Virus record (IMG/VR): IMGVR_UViG_3300045988_018413
Location: 1-6,466 of that record
Source: a virus
DNA length: 6,466 nucleotides
Direction: 5' to 3' (one strand)
Part shown: positions 561 to 6,466 of the stretch, one piece after another
Layout: every line of letters starts with the position of its first letter
Position numbering within the stretch: position 1 is the first letter of the stretch
Made by a program: the position numbers and the translations under genes
Notes under the pieces: model-generated
What the model saw: the letters and a program-made list of their open reading frames with translations, nothing else
Database searches by the model: none
What the model was told of the DNA's origin: nothing

Positions 561-814
561 TAAAACGGAATTTTAAATTGTTTTGGTTTATCGCTGCATG
601 GCAAATCATTCATTCGGAAGATATCTCCAAAAAAGCAATCAGTATAATACAAAGGATCAAAAGCATAATCAAAAATTTTGTTTAATATATTCATTTTTTT
701 AGTCAGATCGACAATATCGCGCGCTTCAACAAAAGTTGTAGCTACCAAAAAATACTGATCCTCAATAAAGGTATCAGAATTATGTTGATAAATGTATACT
801 TTATATTTCGCCAT
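560..814 (-). CDS. Hypothetical 84-aa protein between VP4 and VP1
   Basis: ATG-initiated ORF on the gene strand. Its start overlaps the VP4 3' end by 14 nt (801-814). Its TAA stop shares one base with the VP1 ATG (TAATG at 562->558), the arrangement expected for translational coupling. I recognise no motif; it is slightly acidic and not J-like. Confidence 0.6.
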   Translation of the reverse strand: MAKYKVYIYQHNSDTFIEDQYFLVATTFVEARDIVDLTKKMNILNKIFDYAFDPLYYTDCFFGDIFRMNDLPCSDKPKQFKIPF

Positions 815-2399
815 GATTTCTATAAGATTGTTTAGTAAATATGCCTACAGCATCATTAATTTCTCTGTGTTTTATACGTTTACGAATCTCACTGTGAAGT
901 TTATCACGACAAAGACTTCCGTAATCCGAATCTACGAATCGTTTGATTTTTTCTTGTCTTCGATCCCAAAAAATATCCGACCAATCGCTCTCAAAAGCTT
1001 CAGAATCATGGAATAAATCTTGGAGACTTTTTCGTTCTCTTTCATTGTAAAAATTAATTGAATTTTCGAGTGATTTTTTAATTAATGAATATTCTACTCG
1101 TGTTGACAACAATGTGTAACCAATTCCATTAAGAAACAGTTCAGACTGTCGAAGAAACATATACAACCGAGAATGAAAGCTCCGCACCTCGGAAGGTTCT
1201 CCCTGAATTATTTTCGTATAATCGAGCTTAAGAAAAGAGAGAATACGGTGCAAAGGATAGTCAGATTCTATAAACTTAGCCGCAGCAGAGGGACCTAAGT
1301 CCTGTAAGTATGCATACATTATTCCGGGAGACTGGAACAAGGTCGCCTTCTGGAACGCGGGTCTTTGTTTAAAGTTTCTAGCATATCGTAATATCTCTGT
1401 AAGTTCATGAATATCGCTATGTCTACGTAAAGCGGGTCTGTAAAAGCAGGTATCGATAACCGTGCGCCATGGGAATATAGTGGTATCAAAGCCATTGTAC
1501 GGCAGGCTCTTTCCATTAAGGATTTCATCGAAGTCACCCGATTGAGCTTTCTTAATCGAAGACTCGAAAAAAGAGTATCCGAACTTATTTGAAAATCTTG
1601 CGAAAGGCCGAATAGCACGAATTTCTTGGATATGTAAGGGAATAGAACTAAAGCTGTTAAGATACGAGCTAACGTAGTCTTCAGCGTTGCCTCTCGAGGC
1701 AGAACAATCGACACGTCCAAATCTCCAACACGAACCTGCAATTCTGACAATATTCTGGGCGAGTTCGTCGGAGTCAAAGAATAATAAGAGATGGAAATGC
1801 GGGCGGAAAGAGACTGGTCCGTACTCTCCCACAATATATGCGTGAACTGTTTCATTTATTCCTAATTTAGATATATATTTCCTCACGCGCTTCATGTAAA
1901 GGGCTACATCATCATGTAAAAGGTAAGGAATACGGCCTGAAAGTTCGGGATATTTACCATTGTACGAAAGATTAGCCTTCCGTACATAAGAAGTCCAATA
2001 ATCACGGTTTACTGAAAAGGAAAATGTCTCTATCTTGGGTGATGCAAGGCCGCGAATCTTTAACTTATGCTTGGCACCACGATACGTACAAGTACTATAC
2101 ATAGGGTTACGATTACGACAATAAGCAGTAATCGCAAGAAAATCAGCATCCAAAGCTTCGATTTCGTATTCATAGTACGGAATATACCTCTGGGCATAAG
2201 TAAGAGTGACAAAATATATGTGACGAGAAACCAAAGATTGCGCATGAACTTTATTCTGAGAAAGAATCGACTTATTAAAACGACAAGCAGGACATGTTCC
2301 GCAAGGAACCATAATCAATTCACCAGTATACGGATTTTTAGTCTGCACCTGATGCTGACACATTGAGAAGACTTTTTGTATGAATTCCTGTTGGTTCAT
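801..2399 (-). CDS. VP4: Replication initiation protein VP4 (HUH rolling-circle endonuclease, phiX174 gpA-like)
   Basis: 532-aa ORF. It has an N-terminal Cys cluster (PCGTCPACR), motif 1 FVTLTY, an HUH motif in RPHFHLLLF (HFH encoded at 1799..1791), and a downstream tyrosine motif EDYVSSYLNS. Order and spacing fit Microviridae Rep proteins. Confidence 0.9.
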   Translation of the reverse strand: MNQQEFIQKVFSMCQHQVQTKNPYTGELIMVPCGTCPACRFNKSILSQNKVHAQSLVSRHIYFVTLTYAQRYIPYYEYEIEALDADFLAITAYCRNRNPMYSTCTYRGAKHKLKIRGLASPKIETFSFSVNRDYWTSYVRKANLSYNGKYPELSGRIPYLLHDDVALYMKRVRKYISKLGINETVHAYIVGEYGPVSFRPHFHLLLFFDSDELAQNIVRIAGSCWRFGRVDCSASRGNAEDYVSSYLNSFSSIPLHIQEIRAIRPFARFSNKFGYSFFESSIKKAQSGDFDEILNGKSLPYNGFDTTIFPWRTVIDTCFYRPALRRHSDIHELTEILRYARNFKQRPAFQKATLFQSPGIMYAYLQDLGPSAAAKFIESDYPLHRILSFLKLDYTKIIQGEPSEVRSFHSRLYMFLRQSELFLNGIGYTLLSTRVEYSLIKKSLENSINFYNERERKSLQDLFHDSEAFESDWSDIFWDRRQEKIKRFVDSDYGSLCRDKLHSEIRKRIKHREINDAVGIFTKQSYRNHGEI

Positions 2400-2411: not shown

Positions 2412-2636
2412 TTAATCCTTATCGTTACTTAGTAAATAGAGGTTTTCTTCCGGAAAAACGTCAAAAAGCAAAACAGAATTACTATTAGGTCTTGCGTTCT
2501 CATGCAGGAAGTGTAACAATTCTGCTTCCTCTACTACATAAATTTCAGGGTCCATCGGGTGTTGAGGATCCTGTGTCTTCGGGTGTTTAAGTACTTTAAA
2601 TAACATATCTGTTTGTTTTAAAATTGTGATATGCAA
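2412..2636 (-). CDS. Hypothetical small acidic protein upstream of VP4 (start uncertain: TTG at 2636 or ATG at 2606, 74 or 64 aa)
   Basis: First ORF after the AT-rich putative promoter on the gene strand, ending 12 nt before the VP4 ATG. The track start is TTG. The first ATG is at 2606..2604 (MLFKVLKHPKTQ...). I recognise no motif. Confidence 0.45.
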   Translation of the reverse strand: MHITILKQTDMLFKVLKHPKTQDPQHPMDPEIYVVEEAELLHFLHENARPNSNSVLLFDVFPEENLYLLSNDKD

Positions 2637-2665
2637 ATATTCAAAAATTTTTCTGAAACATCAAA
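2634..2665 (-). promoter_or_regulatory. Candidate Bacteroidota-type promoter for the gene strand (-33 TTTG / -7 AATATTTG)
   Basis: The minus strand reads GATTTTG (TTTG at 2665->2662), then 20 nt, then AATATTTG (2641->2634). This resembles the Bacteroides -33 TTTG / -7 TAnnTTTG consensus, matching 5 of the 6 defined -7 positions. It lies in a 20% GC stretch just upstream of the first gene. It depends on an assumed Bacteroidota host. Confidence 0.25.
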
Positions 2666-3030
2666 ATCTTTTCATATTTTTCTTCACAATTTTTTTAACC
2701 GGTATCTCAGTGTCACTTTTGCATATTTAGGATAAAGGGGTTGAATCAGGGAATGGAGAAACCTGATTCCCATTCGGGCAAAAGTGTAGGCTACGCTAAA
2801 TTCTCCATGTACGCGGCTTCGCCAAACGACGTTTAAAGGACAACAAATCCTTCGGACCGGAACAGTAAAGAAATTCTTAACGGCTTCTAAGGAAGCCTAA
2901 ATTCCTTTCCTATTCCTTTTGTTTTTTGTTATCCGACCTGTGGTCGGCGCTCCGCTTGTAGACCTTCGGTCTGTTCCGGGCGCAGCATCGCGCCCTACAC
3001 GGAACCTAACGTGAATGAACATGACGTAAT

Positions 3031-3041
3031 GGATGTTTACG
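3031..3041. repeat. 11-nt direct repeat GGATGTTTACG, copy 1
   Basis: Exact match to 3129-3139. It abuts the hairpin at 3043-3057. Confidence 0.8.
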
Positions 3042-3128
3042 GGTCAACTCCGTTGACGGCGTGGACCGTGGTTAACATAATGCAAAGGAAGAGTGCCGCA
3101 AGAGTAAGAGATATACTTAAGGGCGCTG

Positions 3129-3139
3129 GGATGTTTACG
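3129..3139. repeat. 11-nt direct repeat GGATGTTTACG, copy 2
   Basis: Exact match to 3031-3041, 98 nt away. It overlaps the start of the hairpin at 3138-3149. Confidence 0.8.
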
Positions 3140-3385
3140 CGATTCCGCGACACGGACTTCGTCCGGCGCTCTCACTGCGTTAATGGTGTCCTTCGGACAG
3201 TGTCAAAGGGCTGTAAAAACAGCCCTAAAAGAACAAAATGCAATTATCATAAACCAGATGGTAAGGAAGGGGTACAGATTGATAAGGGAAAGAAGACTTA
3301 CAATAAAAAGTAACCTTACTATCAGGATAATACTTGCGGAGACTATTTAAAGATAAATAACATTTAAAAATGTCAATCGAGTCAG

Positions 3386-3421
3386 AACGCAAAAATCCCT
3401 TCCAGCATAAACCGGAAGGGA
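3386..3421 (-). terminator. Rho-independent terminator after VP2
   Basis: The minus strand reads T-CCCTTCC-GGTTTATGCT-GGAAGGG-A-TTTTTGCG. This is an 8-bp stem (3396-3403 / 3414-3421) followed by a T-run (3395->3391). It starts 9 nt after the VP2 TAG stop. On the plus strand the stem is not followed by a T-run. Confidence 0.55.
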
Positions 3422-3430
3422 AATTAATAA

Positions 3431-4657
3431 CTAGAGACCGGCAGCTTTGCCGACCTTTTTAAATGATCCTACTTTACTACCTAAATAAAGCGGACCAGCA
3501 ATGCTACCTACACTTCCAAGGATACCTTTAAGAAATTCCTCTATATTGTAATATATAGGATTGTTCTTCCAAGATGATTTTTCACGATCTTTAAAGATTT
3601 CAGACATATATGCAGCAATACGGGCGGCATTGGATTCATACCGAGCCTGAGTAGCTTTAGACATACCAGCCTGCCAAGCGTCATTGTAAAAGCCATTGTA
3701 ATAAGCAGCATTAGCACGGTACTCGGCAGCCATAGCTTTAAACTGATAATCAGCCAATCTTTCAGCCAGTCTGTTATTAAGCTTCTGACCAGCAGCCTGA
3801 GCCTCAAGGAGAGCCTGCTGTTTAATCTGGGTCTTTACCTGAGCTTCTGAAAGCTTACCAGCCTTATACTGAGCAAAGGCATTAGCGGTTTTCAGGAAAA
3901 ATTCAGCCTGCTGTTGAGCGGGCATAAATTTATTAACTATTCTCTGACCTTCAGCTTGAAGTCCAAGAAGAGCACCTTGAGCAAGAGCTACTTTAATATT
4001 CGTCTCAGTTGAGAGATTTTCCAGACGCTTTTTACGCAAATCGATTCCAAGCAAGTTGGGTGCTTCGTTCTGACGACCTAACTTATACACATCGGTAAGC
4101 CATTCAGAATTACCTCCAATTTTCGACATAATGTCAGCTTTCATCAAATCATCTCCATAAGCACTTGTCAGTCTGGCATCAATGCCACTAGCAACAGCGC
4201 TACCTATCTGTGCTATACCAGAAGCTACATTCTGAAAATCAGCAGCATATCCAGTATAAGCCGGAAGACTAGGCGTATGAGAAGCAGTGGCCGGAGAACC
4301 AGAACCAGGAGACGACTGGGCGCCAGACGTAGAACCAGATCCGGGATCTATATTCATATTATAGGGATTAAAGCCGGCAGCTTCCATACGGGCACGTTGT
4401 GCAGACGGATCATTATATGCGTTTTCACGGTTCCATTGGTCCAAATTCCATTGTTGCGAGGCTTCACGTTCAGAGGTCTGAAAATCACGATTTTTTAACG
4501 CTTCCGAAGCATTAAATTCATTATTGATTTGATTGATCTCTTTAGCGGCTTTAATGGAACGCTTTACAGACTTATTGGACATTCCGGAACCGAGAAAACC
4601 AGTCAGAGCAGAAAGGCCACCAGTAGCAAGGGTGGCCGTTCCAGGATCAACTGGCAT
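3431..4657 (-). CDS. VP2: Minor capsid / DNA pilot protein VP2 (phiX174 H analogue)
   Basis: 408-aa ORF. It begins with a Gly-rich hydrophobic N-terminus (ATLATGGLSALTGFLGSGM). It carries the block typical of Microviridae VP2 proteins: NNEFNASEALKNRDFQTSEREASQQWNLDQWNRENAYNDPSAQRARMEAAGFNPY. A G/S-rich linker follows, then a long Ala/Gln-rich probable helical region. Confidence 0.85.
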   Translation of the reverse strand: MPVDPGTATLATGGLSALTGFLGSGMSNKSVKRSIKAAKEINQINNEFNASEALKNRDFQTSEREASQQWNLDQWNRENAYNDPSAQRARMEAAGFNPYNMNIDPGSGSTSGAQSSPGSGSPATASHTPSLPAYTGYAADFQNVASGIAQIGSAVASGIDARLTSAYGDDLMKADIMSKIGGNSEWLTDVYKLGRQNEAPNLLGIDLRKKRLENLSTETNIKVALAQGALLGLQAEGQRIVNKFMPAQQQAEFFLKTANAFAQYKAGKLSEAQVKTQIKQQALLEAQAAGQKLNNRLAERLADYQFKAMAAEYRANAAYYNGFYNDAWQAGMSKATQARYESNAARIAAYMSEIFKDREKSSWKNNPIYYNIEEFLKGILGSVGSIAGPLYLGSKVGSFKKVGKAAGL

Positions 4658-5109
4658 TATTCAGCAGCTTTTCCAGAATCACCAGTCGCCTCAGACTGCT
4701 GATTGGTTTGTATTGATTCCGTGAGTGCATCAAGCTCAGAGCGGATAGAGTCTCCTGCTGATCCAAGGGATTCAATCCAAGCAAGGACTTCGGAAGGAGT
4801 TTGTATAAACCGAGATTTAATTGCTGTAAACAATTGTTCGTCTGTATATTTATTATCATACGGAGATTTTTTAGGCTGTATTCCACGAATAAGATTCAGG
4901 TACGATTCTTCACCAATCTGGTTACGAAGACGTTCGGCATTCATAAGGAGGTTAACATCTGAAACATAATGAATTACTCCATCATCATCTTTTATATAAC
5001 GAAGTCTTTCGACAGGACCAACCTGACAGTAAATCGCAGATTTTAAAACCCTAACAGAATCCAGCACAGGGGTTTCAATTATCTTATCTTTTTTTTCTTC
5101 TTTTTCCAT
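4657..5109 (-). CDS. 150-aa acidic protein between VP1 and VP2; possible internal scaffolding (VP3-like) protein
   Basis: ATG-initiated ORF 11 nt after the VP1 stop. Its TAA stop shares one base with the VP2 ATG (TAATG at 4659->4655). The ends are acidic and charged (MEKEEKKDK..., ...QQSEATGDSGKAAE), and the size is typical of Microviridae scaffolding proteins. The function is inferred from size, position and composition only. Confidence 0.7.
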   Translation of the reverse strand: MEKEEKKDKIIETPVLDSVRVLKSAIYCQVGPVERLRYIKDDDGVIHYVSDVNLLMNAERLRNQIGEESYLNLIRGIQPKKSPYDNKYTDEQLFTAIKSRFIQTPSEVLAWIESLGSAGDSIRSELDALTESIQTNQQSEATGDSGKAAE

Positions 5110-5120
5110 AGTGACAAAAA

Positions 5121-6466
5121 TTAATAAGGCATTCCATCGTAATCGAAGTTACGGACAGCCTTAATATCCATATACAAAGCGGTTAAGAACTGATCGGTAT
5201 CGATTGCATCATCACACTTAACATTAAAAATACTATCCAAAACACGGGGATTTACTTTAAAGAAACCATAGTTCAGATTTAAAGACAACTTTCCAGTAGA
5301 AGTTACAGAAGTATATAACCATTTAGACAAATCAGCAGGGTTCAACGGAGCGACCCAATTCTTAAGAGTCGAACGGAAAGCACCAAGAACCTCGTCGTAA
5401 CGGGTCTTTACATCGAAAAAGCGGGGAAGATATCCCATAGTCTGGGTACGATAATCTATGCCGGAAGTCCATCCAACATTTCTACTATTCACAAAACGAC
5501 CAAACTGGATAGTTTGCATACCAATACTATCAAATTCCGGAAAAGGAAGATCCGCAGTATTTGTATAAAGAAGATTCTGGGGTTGTCCGGTAATCACATA
5601 ATCCAAGAGAGGTACATTATGATAAATACCAATAATAATACCATACTCATCGAATTGACCAGAAAAACTACCTTGACCGGTACCAACACCTTTACCAGCA
5701 ATTTCGGCAACATTATCACCGGTAATATTAGTATTGACTACTTCCGAAAGATCGATATTAGAACTAGAGCCTCCAAGATACATACACTTATCTGAAAGAA
5801 CAGGGCTTAAAGATACACCAAAATGCGCCATAATCTGACCACGTGCATCCTGATCAGCAAACTGAGATACTTCACGGTACTTTTGTACAGCCTCTGCCAT
5901 ACGAAGCTGAAGTATAGAGAAAGAAGAGCCTAATCCAGCAACCTGTTGTGCATAAACACCATATTTAGTAGAAGCAGAAAGAATACTTGTAGTATGCATT
6001 TCCACAGGAGAATCAGCAGAAGGAGCAGAACCAGAGACAGCAGTCAATCCGGCACGTATTTTACCGTCAGTCAAATCAAACAATCCAACAGGGAAAGTTC
6101 CTTCGGATCCAGAGGTATCAACAATACTTACATCACCAAGCTGAGAATCAGGCATTACTCCCATAAACATATCCTTCGGCCAGTTGGCGTAACGAAGAGT
6201 AAAAAGGTTATCATCGGAATAATACTTCTCTGCAAGAGCTGTAGTAGTTAAAGATGCAAGAACATTTCCTCCAGAATACCAATCAAAATTGTAAGTGTAA
6301 GGCTGGTTTTTTTCCCACTGAGTAAAACGAAAAAAGTCAGCGTAAGCTTTTTGATAAGCAGCAAGGGGGAGAATGTGAACTGAAGTCCAACCGTTAGAAG
6401 AAGTATCTGAACTACGAAGATCCAGAGAAGGAGAAAGGCCGATACTGGATGATTTTGTCACAGTAG
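5121..6466 (-). CDS. VP1: Major capsid protein VP1, C-terminal part (unique sequence 5121..6411; 6412-6466 repeats 1-55)
   Basis: 446-aa ORF in the track. Its apparent M start is an in-frame GTG (Val) created by window truncation. It contains the conserved Microviridae capsid block SILQLRMAEAVQKYREVSQFADQDARGQIMAHFGVSL...MYLGGSS. Stop TAA is at 5123..5121. Confidence 0.93.
   Translation of the reverse strand, partial: TVTKSSSIGLSPSLDLRSSDTSSNGWTSVHILPLAAYQKAYADFFRFTQWEKNQPYTYNFDWYSGGNVLASLTTTALAEKYYSDDNLFTLRYANWPKDMFMGVMPDSQLGDVSIVDTSGSEGTFPVGLFDLTDGKIRAGLTAVSGSAPSADSPVEMHTTSILSASTKYGVYAQQVAGLGSSFSILQLRMAEAVQKYREVSQFADQDARGQIMAHFGVSLSPVLSDKCMYLGGSSSNIDLSEVVNTNITGDNVAEIAGKGVGTGQGSFSGQFDEYGIIIGIYHNVPLLDYVITGQPQNLLYTNTADLPFPEFDSIGMQTIQFGRFVNSRNVGWTSGIDYRTQTMGYLPRFFDVKTRYDEVLGAFRSTLKNWVAPLNPADLSKWLYTSVTSTGKLSLNLNYGFFKVNPRVLDSIFNVKCDDAIDTDQFLTALYMDIKAVRNFDYDGMPY
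6412..6466. repeat. Terminal direct repeat, copy 2 (duplicate of 1-55)
   Basis: Exact 55/55 identity with 1-55. Removing one copy gives a 6411-nt circle. Confidence 0.95.

Follow-up and report, generated by a model that had tools for sequence, protein, structure and literature searches.

The complementary-strand origins of phages G4, St-1 and alpha3 are formed by three hairpins in roughly 140 nt, and in origins of this DnaG-dependent type the primer starts at a primase recognition triplet located 3' of hairpin I. The phiX174-type site (PriA n' site) is a biochemically defined hairpin that activates the PriA ATPase and primosome assembly; to our knowledge, the family of these sites has no sequence consensus. 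The intergenic region of the Ff phages (M13/f1) combines the (-) and (+) origins. According to a 2026 review of mini-hairpin DNA, very stable DNA mini-hairpins arise from GNA triloops only (Tm 70-76°C), the DNA form being a poor SSB binder and the RNA counterparts far weaker (PMC13037366). The primase site of the complementary-strand origins of G4, St-1 and alpha3 carries mini-hairpin sequences, which are also present in RSF1010 ssiA (CCGAAGG) and in the hairpin promoters of N4 (PMC13037366). Every microvirus is expected to need a complementary-strand signal, and smaller covarying hairpins of other microviruses have been read in this way (PMC9865509).

The 6,466-nt stretch of DNA analysed here (the window) holds a microvirus genome with a hairpin-rich island at 2737-3226, for which the initial annotation had proposed three roles: a complementary-strand origin or primosome assembly site in the packaged ssDNA, a folded ssDNA attP, or a large structured ncRNA. 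Sequence comparison shows that the island is a single copy of a folded non-coding element which is strongly conserved, is supported by covariation and is common to a large group of gut ssDNA phages.

The element resembles the G4, St-1 and alpha3 origins in being a non-coding region of the putative packaged strand with several stable hairpins capped by GNA/GNNA mini-hairpin sequences, which bind SSB poorly (PMC13037366). It differs from them in its architecture, with at least 11 helices and a three-way junction in ~290-500 nt, and in sequence: a blastn search (word size 11) of 50,697 phage records detected no similarity to the G4/St-1/alpha3 origins or to phiX174. The CCGAAGG mini-hairpin that supports primase recognition in RSF1010 ssiA/ssiB is the same heptamer that caps P1 and two insert hairpins of the element (see below); however, ssiA is 40 nt long and is read by the plasmid-encoded primase RepB', whereas the window encodes no primase. 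With the Ff intergenic region and the ssoA-type single-strand origins of plasmids the element shares the layout of a long, orientation-dependent, hairpin-rich non-coding region reaching from a terminator to a replication gene, but those regions are folded promoters read by the host RNA polymerase, whereas the element has no conserved promoter-like hexamers. Origins of the ssoA/Ff type are marked by a folded promoter (-35/-10 in a stem) and, in the case of ssoA, by a conserved CS-6 and RSB. The element showed no conserved promoter-like site, and the CS-6 string TAGCGT, present at 2797-2792 in the window, is TAGTGA or TATGAA in relatives, so it is not conserved. As regards HUH-Rep origins, the covarying helices have a conserved unpaired linker and GTGACA(C) beside them, and the linker differs in about half of the family. 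As regards an attP of the Xer/dif type, such as the folded attP of CTX or the dif site of gokushoviruses, a junction with a dif-like site was not found inside the element. Reekeekee- and roodoodooviruses also have conserved intergenic hairpins with compensatory substitutions, for which a role in negative-strand initiation has been proposed; those are single hairpins of 13-64 nt (PMC9865509), whereas the present element is multi-domain and the most conserved part of the genome.

Genome organization and upstream boundary of the element

The microvirus genome is circular, of ~6411 nt (bases 1-55 are a repeat of 6412-6466), and the minus strand carries every gene of the window. In the Microviridae, the strand that is packaged is the mRNA-sense one, and from this family knowledge the packaged strand of the window virus would be the minus strand. 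Coordinates below are those of the window, and sequences are written in gene sense, i.e. as the window minus strand.

5121 onward, minus strand: capsid gene
4657-5109, minus strand: 150-aa ORF, no PHROG match; relatives annotate the gene at the same position as internal scaffolding protein
3431-4657, minus strand: pilot gene, with a match to a phage family
3396..3421, minus strand: intrinsic terminator, TCCCTTCCGG..CTGGAAGGGA then TTTTT, directly 3' of the pilot gene (terminator scan)
3225..3392, minus strand: 3' remnant of a small gene, 42 conserved codons without ATG
3207..3226, minus strand: hairpin P0, AGGGCTG(T)..(A)CAGCCCT then TTT, overlapping the stop codon of the small gene
2637..2707, minus strand: AT-rich spacer (20% GC) between the element and the 74-codon ORF and Rep, presumed to be the promoter region and outside the conserved fold
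2412-2636, minus strand: 74-codon ORF (orf74)
801-2399, minus strand: Rep gene, 532 aa, with a match to a phage family
560-814, minus strand: 84-codon ORF

The interval between the pilot gene and orf74, initially described as gene-free, is less empty than it appeared, and ~490 nt of it is one non-coding element. The stretch at 3392-3225 is the remnant of a ~91-aa gene that is intact in most relatives (at 3709-3984 in L001) and whose 5' half is deleted in the window genome. Within the element itself the absence of a conserved ORF held: no reading frame is shared across the copies, in which the longest open frames vary from 43 to 127 codons, the 100-codon ORF of the plus strand at 3011-3313 has no PHROG match, and no tRNA or tmRNA was found in the window.

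As proposed, the island lies downstream of a terminator, which the terminator scan places at 3421-3396. The element is also preceded by P0, which looks like a terminator, although the formal scan called 3421-3396 only and not P0 (3226-3207). The hairpin of P0 is kept in relatives while its sequence is free (AGCCTGG/CCAGGCT, ACGTCTTC/GAAGACGT, CCTGAA/TTCAGG), and the T run that follows it is TTT in the window and TTTTTT in bajarodmic viruses, and is missing from genomes of the L038 type. The remaining hairpins of the element have no T run.

Hairpin content and folding of the island

In agreement with the initial annotation, 2737-3226 contains five distinct perfect hairpins whose stems have at least 6 bp and whose loops have 3-6 nt (2882-2897, 2933-2947, 2978-2995, 3043-3057 and 3207-3226), together with a sixth that has an 11-nt loop (2743-2769). 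The program count for the class with 3-6 nt loops is six, since 3207-3226 is enumerated twice, and 0/2000 dinucleotide-preserving shuffles of 2737-3226 reach this number (mean 0.57 hairpins, maximum 5); the earlier estimate of ~0.5 hairpins expected at random was roughly right. The jump in GC content, from 0.200 in 2641-2700 to 0.657 in 2931-3000, was also reproduced, as was the presence of two perfect long-range complements (2857-2865 with 2971-2979 and 2784-2790 with 2994-3000). The island is therefore real, but its extent had been set too short, as the conserved element reaches further, to ~2710.

Folding with RNA and DNA parameters revealed that both strands beat the shuffled controls, with z-scores of -3.7 (plus strand) and -5.1 (minus strand) for RNA, and of -3.2 and -4.4, respectively, for DNA. 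The strands are not told apart by these nearest-neighbour folding energies, which counts against the origin reading. The sole Rfam match in the window was PrrB/RsmZ (E=0.47, 18.8 bits against a gathering score of 44), and the Rfam covariance models yielded zero matches at E up to 1 in eight relatives.

A conserved element of gut microviruses

A blastn search (word size 11) with 2637-3430 against 50,697 phage records matched four GenBank microviruses, all of them Dulem or bajarodmic viruses, and the records of three annotated relatives have a gap at the same place. Exact-pattern scans of IMG/VR and metagenome contigs enlarged the family to ~77 loci with 60 distinct sequences. All true matches come from gut samples and from microvirus genomes of 6.2-6.9 kb, in which the element always lies between the pilot gene and a small ORF plus Rep, in gene-sense orientation; the other exact-pattern matches were due to chance. 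The pattern TCCTNNNNNNGCNNAAGTGACAC returned known members and chance matches from IMG/VR, and nothing further. The same type of scan over 185,579 species genomes produced chance matches only and revealed the element in no bacterial chromosome. The scenario in which the island would be host DNA in a chimeric contig is refuted by the ~60 syntenic copies. As a separate observation, two contigs (L017 and L107) each consist of two different genomes joined at the element.

The core of the element is 79-93% identical to that of the window, compared to 44-50% for Rep, 33-38% for the pilot protein and 51-61% for the capsid. No other part of these genomes is as conserved, the nearest being the adjoining 74-codon ORF (68-77%). 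When the helices were tested in the collected relatives, both conservation and covariation were found and, with no conserved ORF, they support the view that a genuine structured element, non-coding and under selection, is present in this region.

One 12.8-kb metagenome contig (L071) contains a deleted microvirus between a TPR gene and an IS4-type transposase gene, in the order orf74, Rep residues 1-46 fused to pilot residues 36-385, and then an intact element; genes for DUF3078, NA37 and YceG proteins lie beyond the transposase. This context suggests a Bacteroidota host, and the host of these phages is probably Bacteroidota. The microvirus is flanked by a 16-nt direct repeat, ACATA[A/G]TATAAATTAT (749-764 and 2927-2942), that looks dif-like. 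As the element of L071 ends at 2833, recombination took place ~95 nt outside it. Each of the free genomes L002, L003 and L079 has one copy of the dif-like motif, and the window has none.

Architecture of the element

The structured element proper spans 3199-2710 and consists of a 5' domain (P1-P8), an optional 212-nt insert and a 3' three-way junction (P9-P11).

3187..3199, minus strand: P1, mini-hairpin TGTCC-GAA-GGACA; the middle loop base varies (GAA, GCA, GTA, GGA)
3186-3179, minus strand: unpaired CC[A/G]TTAAC, nearly invariant, directly after P1
3137..3180, minus strand: P2-P4 unit, in which P2 (ACGC/GCGT) encloses an internal loop, P3 (GCG/CGC) and P4 (CGGAC-GAA-GTCCG)
3129..3138, minus strand: first copy of the unpaired motif GTAAACATCC, directly 3' of P2
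3092..3127, minus strand: P5/P6 imperfect hairpin, AGCGCC..AAGTA-loop-TACTC..GGCACT, followed by a variable spacer
3043..3057, minus strand: P7, mini-hairpin GTCAAC-GGA-GTTGAC, with a GNA loop across the family
3025..3041, minus strand: P8, CGTAA-ACATCCA-TTACG
3040-3031, minus strand: second copy of GTAAACATCC, partly within P8
2800..3011, minus strand: optional GC-rich insert of 212 nt, missing from most family members
2708..2792, minus strand: 3' domain, three-way junction (match to covariance model R1, and covariation)
2786-2779 with 2721-2714, minus strand: P9, CACTTTTG with CAAAAGTG
2778-2769, minus strand: P10, CCC-GAAT-GGG (CCC-GAA(T)-GGG across the family)
2768-2762 with 2750-2744, minus strand: P11, AATCAGG with CCTGATT
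2742-2722, minus strand: unpaired pyrimidine-rich linker of ~20 nt, following P11
2716-2710, minus strand: GTGACAC, after the linker

In a MAFFT alignment of 58 sequences, 94.3% of the cells of the 5' domain pair, and 0/500 shuffles match the observed pairing or covariation score. RNAalifold missed most helices on a MAFFT alignment due to register shifts, and was replaced by covariance-model alignment and manual structures. Compensatory changes are found in four helices: GC/CG swaps at two adjacent pairs of P2 (37 versus 21 sequences), C-G to A-U in P3 (41 versus 17 sequences), A-U to G-C in P4, and A-U to G-C in 12 sequences in P7. The internal loop inside P2, AGTGAGA opposite GGAATC, is invariant and leads to P3 and P4; its reading as a K-turn or sarcin-ricin motif was considered by eye only and did not fit cleanly. 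P5/P6 is weakly supported, being 83-90% paired with a C.A mismatch in 35/58 sequences. P8 is a proposed helix that is not proven: 11 sequences have G.T in place of G-C, and no other change is seen. The variants gave no support to a pairing between ATTATGTTAAC and either GTAAACATCC or CCATTAAC, also judged by eye. In distant relatives, similarities to the 5' domain were judged by eye only. A 5' sub-module (GGAATCAGAGTGAG..CGAGC-GCA-GCGAG) of a 6.1-kb genome shows 88% identity to its counterpart in 4.8-kb microviruses of different gene order, in which it again lies on the gene strand within a non-coding gap of 500-590 nt.

The 3' domain pairs in 97.5% of cells across 55 distinct sequences, with compensatory changes at 17/19 pairs and none of 500 shuffles equalling it. 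A covariance model of this domain (R1), built from ten sequences, recovers all family members and finds the junction, with E values between 1e-9 and 0.015, in 11 of 12 sampled GenBank microviruses that are more distant; these come from lemur, rodent, tortoise and dog and have Rep proteins only 24-34% identical; every one of these matches falls in the stretch after the pilot gene. Among 16 diverse genomes, 97.0% of the 3'-domain cells are paired compared to 64.5% in shuffles, changes on both sides are seen at 18/19 pairs, and the covariation score is 0.81, whereas shuffles score 0.20 and slid partners no more than 0.09. As the R1 alignments are fitted to the model, pairing is somewhat inflated in them, but the compensatory pairs are plain in the raw sequences too. 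Several of the distant genomes still have C-GAA-G or C-GTA-G at P10. A -7 box of the Bacteroides type (TAnnTTTG) was looked for in P9 and rejected, as it is exact in few variants only and is lost in distant relatives.

The insert is carried by at least 16 genomes dispersed across both protein clades, and in addition L004 has part of it and L002 a different but related insert. Its hairpins are GGGCGC/GCGCCC, AGACC-GAA-GGTCT, CCGACC-ACA-GGTCGG, GGCTTC/GAAGCC, TCC-GAA-GGA and GGC-GAA-GCC, of which CCGACC/GGTCGG covaries (A-T to G-C in five sequences and C-G to T-A in one). The GC peak and both long-range helices of the nested model put forward initially fall within the insert. The 9-bp helix (2857-2865/2971-2979) is near-invariant, with one variant that has a C.A mismatch, and variation favours a competing pairing of GGAATAG (2916-2910) with CTGTTCC (2865-2859), which absorbs four independent changes, one of them a G-C to A-T double change. 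The sequence of the proposed 7-bp helix (2784-2790/2994-3000) is invariant, and the helix is possible only in insert-bearing genomes.

Strand and nature of the folded molecule

Six hairpins capped by C-GNA-G are present on the gene-sense strand of the element versus none on the opposite strand, compared to 0.16 in shuffles, and the other 5.9 kb of the genome have one and two. Across the family the middle base of these triloops drifts (GAA, GCA, GTA, GGA) while G and A are kept, and the element has none of the GNRA and UNCG tetraloops that RNAs usually have. Wobble pairs point to the same strand in P7-P11, where G.T exceeds A.C by 18 to 1 when the gene-sense strand is read. In P5/P6, A.C is found on this strand in 55 cells (35 of them at one pair) versus 19 cells with G.T, an excess that would suit the opposite strand and counts against the origin reading. 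The element is placed after a terminator and the terminator-like P0, and the scan revealed no recognisable promoter and no 3' terminator in it. Together with the lack of an Rfam match, the GNA caps, the wobble bias and this transcriptional context favour folded ssDNA over RNA, but do not prove it, and we infer that the folded molecule is DNA rather than RNA.

Function of the element and alternative explanations

Our leading interpretation, tentative and falling somewhat short of probable, is that the element is a cis-acting replication region folding in the packaged ssDNA, chiefly a complementary-strand (ssDNA to RF) origin, with priming as its inferred function. Among the three roles proposed initially, this one best fits the strand-specific structure and the C-GNA-G DNA mini-hairpins, which are known from ssDNA priming sites (PMC13037366). 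In such a mechanism, host SSB would coat the circle after entry, and the C-GNA-G mini-hairpins and covarying helices would resist melting, so that a defined scaffold stays. This scaffold would expose CC[A/G]TTAAC, the two copies of GTAAACATCC, the AGTGAGA/GGAATC internal loop and the pyrimidine-rich linker, and might be recognised by host primase, primosome or RNA polymerase, leading to a primer for the complementary strand; the 212-nt insert may act as an extra, optional hairpin module. Conservation of the element across diverged phage proteins fits recognition by conserved host machinery. Against an origin, an element of ~290-500 nt is larger and more complex than known phage complementary-strand origins, and conserved internal loops with an optional expansion domain are likewise typical of large RNAs.

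The viral-strand (+) origin could reside in the 3' junction, with an HUH Rep that nicks the linker (consensus CTTGTCCTA) or the adjacent GTGACAC; extrusion of hairpins, either in displaced ssDNA or in supercoiled RF, would expose the nick site. A complementary-strand origin in the 5' domain could be present beside it, an arrangement seen in the Ff intergenic region. Conserved nick motifs typify other HUH-Rep replicons, and the unpaired linker and GTGACA(C), which are conserved amid freely covarying helices, resemble them; moreover the junction is on the Rep-nicked (+) strand, adjoins the Rep operon and keeps its place in genomes whose Rep is only 24-34% identical. We nevertheless regard this location as unlikely, because the linker is CCCCTTTATCC and not CTTGTCC in the window and about half of the family, leaving no invariant nick motif, and because an element ~90% identical while Rep is 44-50% identical suits a host factor over a co-evolving phage protein. 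The (+) origin of phiX174, within gene A, also counts against it.

A large structured gene-sense RNA of ~290-500 nt, undescribed so far, is likewise an improbable identity for the element. Such an RNA could be a free ncRNA, or could form a structured leader of the orf74-Rep transcript; read-through or a promoter that has escaped recognition would produce it, and its role would be to act on a phage or host factor or to control Rep expression. The multi-helix architecture, strong covariation, invariant internal loops and expansion domain of a GC-rich island in an AT-rich genome would be expected of such an RNA, its fold z-score is -5.1, and the gene-sense G.U-type wobbles fit RNA equally. These points are set against the missing Rfam matches in the window and eight relatives, the position after a terminator and a terminator-like hairpin with no recognisable promoter or 3'-end terminator, and the use of GNA triloop caps, which stabilise DNA and are weak in RNA, in place of GNRA or UNCG tetraloops.

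That the element, or at least P5/P6, is an antisense RNA from the window plus strand seems very improbable. The A.C mismatches of P5/P6 would read as G.U on that strand, and a sigma-70-like TTGACG-17-CATAAT is found on it at 3053-3081, but this site is not conserved in divergent members, a plus-strand terminator is missing, and the six GNA caps and the wobble bias of P7-P11 indicate the gene-sense strand. Finally, an attP formed by folded ssDNA and used for integration of the Xer type, as CTX phage does, is hardly credible and appears largely refuted, since, although relatives can integrate (L071 being a decayed prophage in a Bacteroidota-like contig) and half-site-like strings such as TTATGTTAAC occur in the element, the repeats of L071 lie ~95 nt beyond an intact element, the dif-like motif is found once in L002, L003 and L079 and nowhere in the window, TTATGTTAAC is not conserved and was rejected as a dif half-site, and no bacterial chromosome among the species genomes scanned carries a copy.

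Implications for gut microviruses

A literature search found no description of the element, which is also absent from Rfam, and the gut microviruses that bear it are abundant and uncultured. Returning to the complementary-strand origin, the element provides a concrete, clonable candidate for it, and perhaps also for a Rep nick site, in probable Bacteroidota phages, and it lends itself as a natural test case for the idea that GNA DNA mini-hairpins in clusters act as SSB-resistant priming platforms. A covariance-model marker for finding and orienting such genomes is possible, and the element offers an explanation for chimeric assemblies joined there. If it is an RNA, it would represent a new large ncRNA class and the first structured ncRNA class in ssDNA phages, one in which the three-way junction is conserved and an expansion domain is optional. 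Should it be an origin, it would be several times larger than known origins, modular, and common to a broad clade of uncultured gut phages.

Genes adjoining the conserved folded region

The folded non-coding element is bordered in the window by two small genes, of which the upstream one has a full-length copy in L001, a related genome:
Window 2412-2636, minus strand: 74-codon ORF adjoining the element
Window 3225-3392, minus strand: 3' remnant of a conserved gene of about 91 aa (last 42 codons, without an ATG)
L001 3709-3984: full-length copy of the gene of about 91 aa

The 74-codon ORF, for which no family match was found, is co-conserved with the element and retains 68-77% identity where Rep shows 44-50% and the pilot protein 33-38%; it may act jointly with the element. 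The gene of about 91 aa (product MKTNKLFRV...PVYDFSGNN.RSSLNSLRKYYPD...CILFF) is intact in most relatives, whereas only the 42 C-terminal codons are left in the window, and shortened versions were also detected in three other genomes. Its product had no matches in Pfam or PHROG, and the copy in Dulem virus 265 is labeled 'replication initiator protein' in GenBank.

Variable features in and around the element

Two further features were located within the element or at its 3' end:
Window 3053-3081, plus strand (antisense): sigma-70-like site TTGACG-17-CATAAT (10/12 matches), inside the element
L001, about 4275-4310: TGGATTC-GAA-GAATCCA hairpin, directly 3' of the element, just past GTGACAC

Part of the sigma-70-like site is supplied by an arm of the P7 mini-hairpin, and the site is not conserved in divergent members. 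This additional GAA-capped hairpin is present at that position in many or most relatives and is missing from the window.

Related gaps, composite contigs and a decayed prophage

Non-coding gaps of 500-590 nt were observed in two 4.8-kb microviruses whose gene order is unlike that of the window:
L157 1964-2555 and L158 1964-2467, gene strand: non-coding gap

These gaps share motifs with the element, including GTAAACAC and a GTGACAC hairpin, and have a sub-module in common with the L132 sequence (88% identity over about 90 nt). A search of both genomes with R1, the covariance model of the element's 3' domain, gave no match.

Contigs L017 and L107 each join two different microvirus genomes, with Rep identities to the window of 95% and 48%, at the shared element, reflecting either misassembly across near-identical copies or true recombination there. 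In L056 (2400-13620), a microvirus fragment comprising the element, the small ORF and Rep residues 1-391 runs into 65%-GC DNA coding for a beta-ketoacyl synthase; this contig is probably a chimeric assembly.

One contig, Bacteroidota-like, carries an integrated relative:
L071 700-3100: decayed microvirus prophage

Through an internal deletion, Rep (residues 1-46) has become fused to the pilot protein (residues 36-385), and an IS4-type transposase adjoins the prophage, which 16-nt dif-like direct repeats flank (749-764 and 2927-2942). Xer-type integration is thereby suggested for this subclade, and the prophage provides a clue to the host.
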